Assembly: GCA_964474885.1 (NCBI GenBank)
Contig: CAYYWO010000002.1
Location: 67,358-131,357, forward strand
Origin: Candidatus Hadarchaeota archaeon
GTDB taxonomy: Archaea > Hadarchaeota > Hadarchaeia > Hadarchaeales > JAWBSP01
Reading direction: 5' to 3'
DNA: 64,000 nucleotides
Shown one piece after another: positions 53,725-55,531 of this stretch. The first letter of the stretch is position 1. Every line of letters begins with the position of its first letter. The notes under the pieces are model-generated. The model searched no databases, was not told the DNA's origin, and was given only the letters and a program-made list of their open reading frames with translations. The translations under genes were made by a program, and so were the position numbers.

Positions 53725-54155
53725 CAGGATCCCCTAAGTCTCTCGACGAACTCCCGAGCCTTTTGCTCGTCGGGAAAAACCAGCTTAACGTGTATGACAT
53801 CCGAGCCCTCGCTCACCTTTAACCTCCCCTGGCAGGCCTCCTGCTTGTCGAACCTCACGTAGAGGACGTTCCCCTCCCTCTTCTTCCCGAGCTCCAGGTC
53901 CTCCTCCGGCAGGCTCCGGAGCCTCTCGCAGAGCTGCCTCACCCTCTCATCCCTGAGCCTCAGCTCTATCAGCTGGATGGGATTGCCAAAATGTCCCTTG
54001 AGCCTGCTCGACCTGTAGCCCCTGGGATCCACCAGGGAGGAGAGAGCCCTGAGGACCTTCTCCTCGGATTCCGTTGCGTGAACGAACGTCCTCAGTGCTA
54101 CCTCCTTGGGAAAAATCTCATCAGCCGTCCTAAAATCCCGTGCCAAACTGTACAC
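53724..54155 (-). CDS. COG1325/DUF54 RNA-binding protein of the exosome superoperon
   Basis: FVHATESEEKV, GHFGNPI, YVRFDKQ; start GTG 54155 or TTG 54146. Confidence 0.85.
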   Translation of the reverse strand: MYSLARDFRTADEIFPKEVALRTFVHATESEEKVLRALSSLVDPRGYRSSRLKGHFGNPIQLIELRLRDERVRQLCERLRSLPEEDLELGKKREGNVLYVRFDKQEACQGRLKVSEGSDVIHVKLVFPDEQKAREFVERLRGS

Positions 54156-55531
54156 CTCCTTGACAGGGGATTCTTTGCGCCTCCGCCGGCGGTTTCAACG
54201 CGGCTACGAGCCGCTCTGCCACCGGCTGCATCTGGCGCCATTCGGGGGGGGACGTGGCTCCCCACATTCTTAGTCCACCAGCGAGCGGCTATGTTGTAGG
54301 CACCTACTAGGTGCCTATCGCCAACGAAGCCGCACCGCCTGCACGAGAACACGTGCCCATTCGGTCTTCTACGCGAACCACATGTCGGGTACGTGCTCGA
54401 TGTCCCTTTCACTTCGGCTCTGGGCAGGTAGTGCGTCCGGTACCCGTGCTGGAGAGCCTTGTGCTCGATAAAGAATTGAAGCCTACGGAACGGCCACTGG
54501 TTCAGCCTGCGGCGCATATCCTTGTGCATGCCCTTGCCGTTCCCCGACTTGCACTTGGAACGCATCGACTCTCTAATGCCAGTCAGATCCTCGAATACCG
54601 GCTCTACCCGTTCCCGCTCGATGATCTCAACAACCTGCTTGCTGACGACGTGTAGCACTTGGTTCGTTCGGTTGCGCCTGCGCCGCTCGTACTTGCGTTT
54701 CAGCTTCTGCTTCTGCACGGGGCGATGGGGCGGCACATCCAACTTCCGCCGGATCGACTTCTGCTTCAGCTCCATGGAGTGCGCGATGGTCGCGAGCTTG
54801 GACGTGTCGAGCTTGATGTGCTTGGGCCTCTGCCCCAGCTTCAGGATGCAGAGGTCCACGGAGCGCTCATTCACATCTATGCCGCAGATGCCCTCCGCTG
54901 ACTTGAGTTCGACCTCGCGCTTGAACGGCACGAAGACGCTTGTCCGATTTCCAAAAAGCGAGATTGTGACCTCGCCGACGCGCTTTCCATCGCGCCATTC
55001 CTCCAAGCAGCGGAGCCTGTGGTACTCCGTCACGACAAGGGGGAGCCAGAGGTGCTCACCCTTCCGCACCCGAATCTGGACCGCGTGGCCGTGAAAGCGA
55101 CATGCACCTGATGCGTTTCCGTCGCTCCACAGCTCAAGGCGCATCGTTCGCGCCTCATAGACAGGCGGCTTGTTTGGGTCGGCCCGCCCCTGACGGCACA
55201 GTCTGCGCCAGGAGCACAGGATCTGGGTCGCAACCTGCCCGGCCGAGTGGAACCAGTGCATCGCGAGGTCGAACTTCGACTTCCACTCCTCATACGCGAC
55301 GCGATGCAGTGAGGCGCAGGAAGTCACCCTGTGGTCGAGGCACTTTTGAATGCAGAAGTTCACAGACGCAACGAACTGGTCTAGCAATCCTTCCAGCATC
55401 TGTTTCCGCCGTGTCAGGGGCGGGGTGACAAATCGTGCCGAACTAATGAATCGCACGTTAACACTCCACTCTGGCTCTGTTGACCTCCCAATTTGTTTCA
55501 TCGGTATCGCCTGCCGGAACGCATCAAACAT
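54098..55531 (-). CDS. tnpB: TnpB (IS200/IS605, IS1341-type solo) with altered RuvC-III and zinc finger
   Basis: GIDVN (RuvC-I), VFEDL (RuvC-II), WPFRRLQFFIEHKA, TSSTYPTCG, CRRCG, DRHLVGAYNIA. Confidence 0.88.
   Translation of the reverse strand: MFDAFRQAIPMKQIGRSTEPEWSVNVRFISSARFVTPPLTRRKQMLEGLLDQFVASVNFCIQKCLDHRVTSCASLHRVAYEEWKSKFDLAMHWFHSAGQVATQILCSWRRLCRQGRADPNKPPVYEARTMRLELWSDGNASGACRFHGHAVQIRVRKGEHLWLPLVVTEYHRLRCLEEWRDGKRVGEVTISLFGNRTSVFVPFKREVELKSAEGICGIDVNERSVDLCILKLGQRPKHIKLDTSKLATIAHSMELKQKSIRRKLDVPPHRPVQKQKLKRKYERRRRNRTNQVLHVVSKQVVEIIERERVEPVFEDLTGIRESMRSKCKSGNGKGMHKDMRRRLNQWPFRRLQFFIEHKALQHGYRTHYLPRAEVKGTSSTYPTCGSRRRPNGHVFSCRRCGFVGDRHLVGAYNIAARWWTKNVGSHVPPRMAPDAAGGRAARSRVETAGGGAKNPLSRRCTVWHGILGRLMRFFPRR
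54160..54317 (-). ncRNA. Candidate omega-RNA (reRNA) scaffold overlapping the tnpB 3' end
   Basis: Hairpins TAGGCACCT-N3-AGGTGCCTA (54297-54317), GGGGA..TCCCC (about 54248-54263), GCGGCT-N3-AGCCGC (54200-54214), palindrome CCGCCGGCGG (54183-54192). Confidence 0.55.

Follow-up and report, generated by a model that had tools for sequence, protein, structure and literature searches.

The stretch of DNA analysed here (the window, 64,000 nucleotides (nt)) comes from a metagenome-assembled genome of a Candidatus Hadarchaeota archaeon (assembly GCA_964474885.1, contig CAYYWO010000002.1, positions 67,358 to 131,357 of the forward strand). Inside an exosome superoperon, between the gene for L15e and a gene for an RNA-binding protein (COG1325), the window contains a solo tnpB gene whose product carries a histidine at the position of the third catalytic aspartate of the RuvC domain. 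A sequence-only reading of the locus had proposed a possible nuclease-dead, RNA-guided protein similar to the TldR repressors, and had named as alternatives a TnpB clade with a variant active site and a recently decaying insertion sequence. Our analysis makes it likely that the gene is carried by a stranded, non-autonomous IS607 copy, and that it belongs to a clade of His-type TnpBs that most likely still act as RNA-guided nucleases. The element and its gene are made up of the following features, numbered by their position in the window.

54125 to 55643, minus strand: the whole element, a non-autonomous IS607-family insertion that lacks tnpA, spans about 1.5 kb and separates L15e from the COG1325 RNA-binding gene.
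55632 to 55643, minus strand: left-end terminus GCTGATGTAGCT, identical at 11 of 12 positions to the clade consensus GGTGAYGTAGCT/AACT and including the final two L15e codons with the TAG stop that follows them.
54098 to 55531, minus strand: tnpB open reading frame (ORF) as listed, 477 amino acids (aa).
54130 to 55456, minus strand: tnpB as the family reads it, with a GTG start at 55456, a frame broken by an extra C at 54244-54251 and a family-type TAG stop at 54132-54130.
54875 to 54877, minus strand: RuvC-I Asp (D219 of the 477-aa ORF) in GIDVNERS, intact, with a Glu at Asp+3 (DxNE motif).
54590 to 54592, minus strand: RuvC-II Glu (E314) in VFEDL, intact.
54389 to 54391, minus strand: TAC codon of a zinc-finger Tyr in TSSTYPTC, replacing the first zinc-finger Cys (Cys381) and followed by an intact CRRC.
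54311 to 54313, minus strand: CAC codon of the RuvC-III His in DRHLVGAYNIA, at the catalytic Asp position and invariant in the clade.
54244 to 54251, minus strand: run of eight C (C8), with one base fewer in all 11 homologous loci, causing a +1 frameshift of the C-terminal tail and situated, within the RNA scaffold, in the helix 1 loop.

In profile searches the 477-aa product scored above the cut-offs of PF07282 (5e-12) and TIGR01766 (41.7 bits), and slightly below that of the TnpB subfamily model NF040570 (94.6 bits; cut-off, 100). Judged by these matches, which include the zinc-ribbon/TNB domain profile, the product is a TnpB. An AlphaFold2 model (predicted local distance difference test score, 82) had the WED/REC/RuvC whole-protein fold of solved TnpB and Cas12f proteins, and Foldseek retrieved AsCas12f (template modelling (TM) score 0.67, E 2e-16) and ISDra2 TnpB (8h1j, TM 0.57). 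When the family profile was compared with structures, the window His fell on the catalytic Asp in each of three solved TnpB/Cas12f chains (9nzp, 9nzq and 8hr5). The motifs described earlier, that is, an intact RuvC-I (GID) and RuvC-II (FEDL), together with DRHLVGAYNIA and TSSTYPTC, are all in the sequence. The ORF from which they were read likewise exists and encodes a TnpB, but both of its ends probably differ from the true gene ends, according to the alignment of 5' ends, the translation of the shifted frame and the DNA alignment of 3' ends; the last 58 codons of the ORF are out of the family frame because of the single extra C in the C8 run. In place of the canonical Asp-Glu-Asp (DED) triad, the Asp and Glu are combined with a His as third residue in the window protein and in all 41 other members of its clade; TnpBs with such RuvC-III variants are still classed as TnpB (PMC10691335).

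A homologue search over 5.8 billion proteins yielded 96 homologues, mostly with 60-73% identity; those named belonged to Hodarchaeaceae, Freyarchaeota and Bathyarchaeia, and genome loci added Hadarchaeota, the window's own group, and Methanomethylicaceae. The clade alignment consisted of 42 sequences, the window protein and 41 homologues with 50-73% identity to it from Hadarchaeota, Bathyarchaeia, Asgard and Methanomethylicota. The RuvC-III His was present in 42/42 sequences, the RuvC-I Asp and RuvC-II Glu were nearly invariant, and the zinc-finger residues C384, C397 and C400 were invariant; C381 was Cys everywhere except in the window. At the RuvC-III column, the nearest relatives bearing Asp have DKD (37% identity) and NAD (28% identity). 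Among 62 representatives of the wider relatives (22-74% identity), this column contained His in 29, Asp in 30 and Gln in three, with an invariant RuvC-I Asp, and a maximum-likelihood tree required 14 state changes, at least 6-7 of them forced by well-supported branches alone. These changes in an otherwise conserved site indicate that Asp and His were swapped repeatedly in evolution. By its distribution, then, the His is an old trait of a compact (about 430 aa) archaeal clade and is not private to the window copy. The suggestion of a TnpB clade with a variant active site was thus right for the His. Private decay had been expected to show itself by Asp and Cys in close relatives; these do have the Cys, but at the catalytic position they have His.

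The glutamate of the DxNE motif was found in 27 of the 29 His-type proteins and in 12 of the 30 Asp-type proteins of the wider set; it may be a compensating carboxylate for the His, a candidate that we treat as a lead only. This glutamate has been lost in P0094 and P0106, the nearest Asp-type sisters of the window's clade. The three cluster representatives with Gln at the RuvC-III catalytic position (P0136, P0140 and P0194) all retain the Asp, the Glu and the zinc finger.

Altered RuvC-III motifs have precedents. Altae-Tran et al. (2023) described six large TnpB branches of this kind, the largest of which, RIIIr-4, has an Asp-to-His change, as well as archaeal branches (Ser-6 and RIIIr-6), and argued from conservation that activity is retained in such enzymes ("rearranged, probably active"; PMC10691335). 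Overall, therefore, the case is an ordinary one, in that TnpBs with Asp-to-His in RuvC-III had already been described (PMC10691335).

The limits of the element were set by a right boundary that is sharp in 12 loci, by a left terminus matched to the left ends of the clade (L014, L018, L019, L022, L025, L027, L055 and L060), and by an empty site in two genomes of the same genus (G001 and G002). In a DNA alignment, the right ends of the 12 loci were conserved down to the invariant ...TTTAGGACGG (...GGACGG) and were followed by unrelated flanks; the left ends of the relatives start with GGTGAY(G/A)TA(A/G)CTGC... straight after unrelated flanks. The crossover core of IS607 elements is GG at both ends (PMC10711439), and GG was found at the right end of all loci and at the left end of the relatives, but the left end in the window reads GC. 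There, the next ~50 nt of the family's outer left end are also missing after the 12-nt terminus. One related locus, L019, encodes directly upstream of tnpB a Resolvase+HTH_17 protein, that is, an IS607-type serine-recombinase TnpA, and the region upstream of tnpB is a conserved coding region in six related loci (L019, with L017, L018, L021, L023 and L025). Such an upstream tnpA is lacking in the window and its genome: the assembly, 92% complete, yielded neither a serine recombinase (PF00239) nor a Y1 transposase (PF01797), in agreement with the sequence-only reading on tnpA. Because tnpA is absent from both window and genome, we consider the window copy to be non-autonomous.

Scanning for the right-end motif located it on 2-4 different contigs within single assemblies (CAZMCI01, JAPDJF01 and LQMQ01), and also in short mini-elements composed of a left and a right end. 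Eleven of 41 related genomes, counting the one analysed here (G000), have a match; they are spread over genera, and the same-genus G001 and G002 are not among them. In both of these, the L15e and COG1325 genes share four bases (GTGA), with nothing inserted between them. The family thus shows the multiple copies, unrelated flanks and empty sites of a mobile IS607 element, and the empty sites place the insertion between L15e and the COG1325 gene after the split of this species from its genus relatives.

The sequence GGCTGATG occurs on both sides of the element, at 55632-55643 and at 54118-54125. We rejected an 8-bp target-site duplication, because the left copy is the element's own left-end terminus; the right copy being target flank, the target resembled the end of the element. 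L15e has 160 aa in the window, and its same-genus orthologues have 159 and 155 aa, ending in RGLLR and RGLVR; compared with these, the window protein is not truncated. Short derivatives of the family are frequent in Hadarchaeota and Jordarchaeia assemblies (L035, L055, L060, L071, L098 and L134); in at least L035, L055, L060 and L134, the family's left end lies no more than ~200 nt upstream of the right end, with a partial RNA scaffold and without tnpB.

Three RNA-related features lie at or next to the 3' end of tnpB.

54297 to 54317, minus strand: hairpin around the His codon, with perfect 9-bp arms and a 3-nt loop; it is local to this copy and its register is not conserved.
54125 to 54263, minus strand: predicted scaffold of the omegaRNA (right-end element RNA, reRNA), within the 3' coding tail and ending at the invariant right end; its 5' limit is nominal.
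54105 to 54124, minus strand: predicted guide (CTGATGAGATTTTTCC...), the flank right after the right end, of assumed length and lying over the 5' end of the COG1325 gene.

The last ~140 nt before the right end are in frame in the family and code for a loosely conserved tail. A scaffold model was built for this region with RNAalifold on 17 loci, which gave the nested helices, plus one 3' helix placed by eye. Its 32 pairs are 96.1% paired across the 17 loci, and 18 show compensatory changes; shuffling 500 times never equalled this (0/500), and slid controls reached 30-48%. The window copy forms 32/32 of these pairs. The covariation argues that a structured 3' guide-RNA scaffold ending at the transposon right end, as in TnpB systems, is real in this family and, by its pairing, structurally intact in the window. 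No Rfam family matched the interval 53800-55800 at E up to 1.

The earlier suggestion that the omegaRNA region is preserved is therefore upheld, but its inclusion of the His-codon hairpin is not, since the hairpin lies outside the conserved structure. The hairpin is present as described, and a minimum-energy fold prediction includes it. We rejected it as a conserved RNA element, for homologues have hairpins in differing registers and the consensus fold lacks it; its symmetry may be due in part to the His (CAC) and Val (GTG) codons, which are reverse complements of each other in many homologues. Sequence conservation ends exactly at 54125 in all loci and, by the logic of IS607 elements, the guide would be the flank from 54124 downwards. 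For the first 16 nt of this predicted guide, we found no second target in the genome with two or fewer mismatches, except one probable chance hit.

Several departures from the family are private to the window copy. The Cys381-to-Tyr change (TGC to TAC, a G-to-A transition) is unique to it in the clade alignment. Reading in the shifted frame after the C8 run restores the family's tail and its stop. At columns conserved in at least 95% of sequences, the window protein departs privately 13 times, five of them owing to the frameshift, compared with a median of about four for the set. We do not take this excess as proof of decay, for which it is weak, the set containing no close relative of the window. 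Taken with the truncated left end, these changes fit the alternative of a recently decaying insertion sequence that had been put forward from the letters, and the pattern suggests that the copy is stranded, weakened and probably decaying.

The window copy also contains an internal block that recurs in this genome.

55584 to 55623, minus strand: ~40-nt motif resembling a promoter or leader (GAATTTACTTCYAGYCAACTCTCTCTCC, then TTTAGG), common to a mini-element, to other tnpB-like genes here and to solo elements elsewhere.

In blastn comparisons of the left-end region with its own genome there were nine further matches, with 77-96% identity. The motif was located at C2:34786-34834, C3:1683-1736, C7:34328-34350, C8:21798-21831, C9:29743-29774, C10:441-476 and C15:13322-13360 of G000, C2 being the contig of the window; altogether it has about ten genomic occurrences, among which at least two precede other tnpB-like frames and some precede unrelated genes, and a related block precedes the solo tnpB genes of other Hadarchaeota (L014 and L027). 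It looks, from this distribution, like a shared promoter or leader or like a mobile promoter block. As the true left boundary of the element it was rejected, being an internal promoter-like block found also before unrelated genes.

The mini-element, of about 160 nt and of the same family, lies outside the window on the same contig (C2:8175-8335). There, a left-end/leader region of the window type (69-89% identity) runs straight into the final 17 nt of the right end (...TTTAGGACGA), and the start codon of the next gene follows 8 nt downstream. The assembly also has four further TNB-domain hits, one in a 384-aa tnpB and three in short open frames (C9, C16 and C43). This second full-length tnpB (C2:33600-34760; L153:1330-2484, minus strand) belongs to a different family with a canonical DRD, and its zinc finger is deleted (TSQNIPEGFDRD).

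Downstream of tnpB, positions 54091-54155 correspond to the start region of the COG1325 gene. The ATG used as start in relatives (MRLL...) is found at 54120-54118, but a one-base shift puts it out of frame. In-frame starts are limited to GTG at 54155 and TTG at 54146; both lie within the transposon right end, just beside or after a GGAGG that departs at two bases from the right-end consensus of the family (GCTGG/ACTGG). Two explanations would fit: a gene start that has moved into transposon DNA, or a second homopolymer error, in a run of five T and three C (T5C3).

In the reading that we prefer, the element is a tnpB gene and a guide-RNA scaffold, cargo without a transposase gene, inserted between L15e and the COG1325 gene. 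The TnpB of the clade, in which RuvC-III always has His and the RuvC-I Asp, the RuvC-II Glu and the four-cysteine (C4) zinc finger are kept, would most likely still serve the transposon as its RNA-guided nuclease. Transcripts of tnpB would yield, from their 3' end, an omegaRNA that runs on into the flank, and this RNA would direct cleavage of the empty site beside a GG-containing motif, with repair restoring the element; the His, probably together with the DxNE Glu, would complete a rearranged metal site. The window copy would then be such an element with no TnpA left in its genome, its outer left end deleted, one zinc ligand changed to Tyr and its C-terminal tail frameshifted, the RNA scaffold having stayed intact.

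Several observations weigh against this interpretation. Mutating any residue of the DED triad abolishes cleavage by canonical TnpB (10.1101/2023.11.30.569447), and no bench assay of any His-type TnpB was found in the searchable literature; for these two reasons, we infer the activity of the clade from its conservation and mobility. The coupling between His and the DxNE Glu was not significant when relatedness was allowed for, in an underpowered comparison in which 2-3 independent pairs agreed and 0-1 disagreed. Part of the excess of private substitutions is to be expected, because the nearest relative of the window protein is only 73% identical. The shortened left end is common to the window copy and the mini-element at C2:8175-8335, and may for that reason still have been mobile at some time. 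Finally, in a genome assembled from a metagenome, both the frameshift and the Tyr could stem from assembly errors.

Carried to its end, this last point would make the copy an intact, functional His-type tnpB, with the extra C and the TAC codon as errors of the metagenome consensus. The C8 run that causes the frameshift does rank among the genome's ten longest G/C homopolymers, all of 8 nt, and a second frame problem occurs only 130 nt away, in the T5C3 run at the COG1325 start; the remaining 1.2-kb frame is open, and the scaffold retains every pair. A G-to-A change is, however, atypical of homopolymer error, the truncated left end and eight other private changes at conserved columns would still stand, and other tnpB relics in this genome are clearly decayed, such as the copy at C2:33.6-34.8 kb without its zinc finger, so that we consider such an artefact unlikely. 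A shade less likely in our estimate is that the whole His-type clade is nuclease-dead, or nicks only, and, still transposon-borne, serves the IS607 element by RNA-guided DNA binding, for instance in choosing a target or in retention. The effect of DED mutations and the missing enzyme assay speak for it, as does the alternation at this site of His, Asp and Gln, the last of which is poor at holding a metal ion. Yet His is known as a metal ligand or general base in the RuvC-type sites of Cas9 and of Thermus RuvC. Moreover, a dead site would not be expected to have an invariant RuvC-I Asp and to keep the RuvC-II Glu and the zinc finger across the His, Asp and Gln forms, and inactive TnpBs were found to be less mobile, conserved substitutions being read as rearrangements (PMC10691335).

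We give little credence to a broader variant, in which His-type TnpBs would use a chemistry other than that of D-E-D (another metal, nicking only, or binding without cutting) and the copy stranded in the exosome superoperon, its intact guide scaffold being aimed at the start of the next gene, could act as a regulator; if it were true, IS607 carriers would rely on RNA-guided DNA binding and not on double-strand cleavage. The least probable, in our view, is the explanation first favoured by the sequence-only reading, a TldR-like domestication of this copy as a nuclease-dead RNA-guided repressor of the exosome superoperon, with its guide over the COG1325 start. It draws on the co-directional site within a conserved operon, the overlap of the guide region with the 5' end of the next gene, the failure to find a transposase in the assembly and the intact RNA scaffold. 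But the insertion is missing in both same-genus genomes and every other locus has a different context; only one catalytic residue differs, and it does so also in mobile relatives of an IS607 clade with TnpA; the transposon ends are present; and the private changes resemble damage and not adaptation. Self-targeting is not expected either, because the sole match of the guide is its own flank, which adjoins the right end and not a transposon-associated motif (TAM).

Together, our results indicate that one non-acidic residue in the RuvC triad is no sign that a solo TnpB has been domesticated as a "dead" regulator; in the present family, which is mobile, the residue is fixed, and in related TnpBs it was swapped with Asp many times. 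The clade offers material for a first bench test of a His-type RuvC site, namely compact archaeal proteins of ~430 aa with a sharp right end, an in-frame scaffold supported by covariation and a candidate compensating glutamate in DxNE. For genome annotation, transposon DNA now holds the L15e stop and probably also the start of the gene that follows.

Compared with known systems, the window's TnpB shares with TldRs (10.1101/2023.11.30.569447) the TnpB fold, an altered catalytic triad and an adjacent guide-RNA scaffold. The search that defined TldRs required at least two triad mutations (members have one to three), frequently accompanied by a missing C-terminal zinc finger and RuvC region, and TldRs have lost their transposon ends, have fixed non-transposon gene partners and carry guides that match promoters (10.1101/2023.11.30.569447). 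The window protein has a single substitution, common to mobile relatives, and retains the zinc-finger and RuvC-III region; its element has transposon ends and a context that varies from locus to locus, and the 16-nt start of its guide has, bar the probable chance hit, no second genomic match. Cas12f (AsCas12f; 8j3r, 8j1j and 7wju) was the best structural match to the model, with a TM of 0.67-0.68 over the whole protein, but identity is only 15-16%, the RuvC-III residue of Cas12f is Asp, and there is no CRISPR array here. Closer are the "rearranged" RuvC-III branches (RIIIr-4; Ser-6, RIIIr-6; PMC10691335), which share the Asp-to-His change with the other catalytic residues kept, are largely archaeal, in some cases linked to serine recombinases, and were predicted to be active. 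RIIIr-4 was described as lacking the C4 zinc finger and as including immobile genes linked to ribbon-helix-helix (RHH)/MazE proteins (PMC10691335), whereas the window's clade has the His, has a zinc finger and is transposon-borne, and is thus not RIIIr-4 as described. With respect to IS607 TnpB/omegaRNA systems, the window's clade differs in its RuvC-III His instead of Asp, in its archaeal hosts (Hadarchaeota and others) and in a scaffold that lies wholly in the reading frame, with the stop 5 nt from the element end; the window copy differs, in addition, in lacking TnpA and part of the left end. In common with systems such as ISXfa1 (PMC10711439), however, its relatives have an upstream serine-recombinase TnpA, GG-bounded ends and solo-tnpB derivatives, and tnpB is overlapped at its 3' end by a structured RNA (about 140-150 nt) that continues into the flank; the predicted fold of the window protein matches the structure of ISFba1 TnpB (8iaz).

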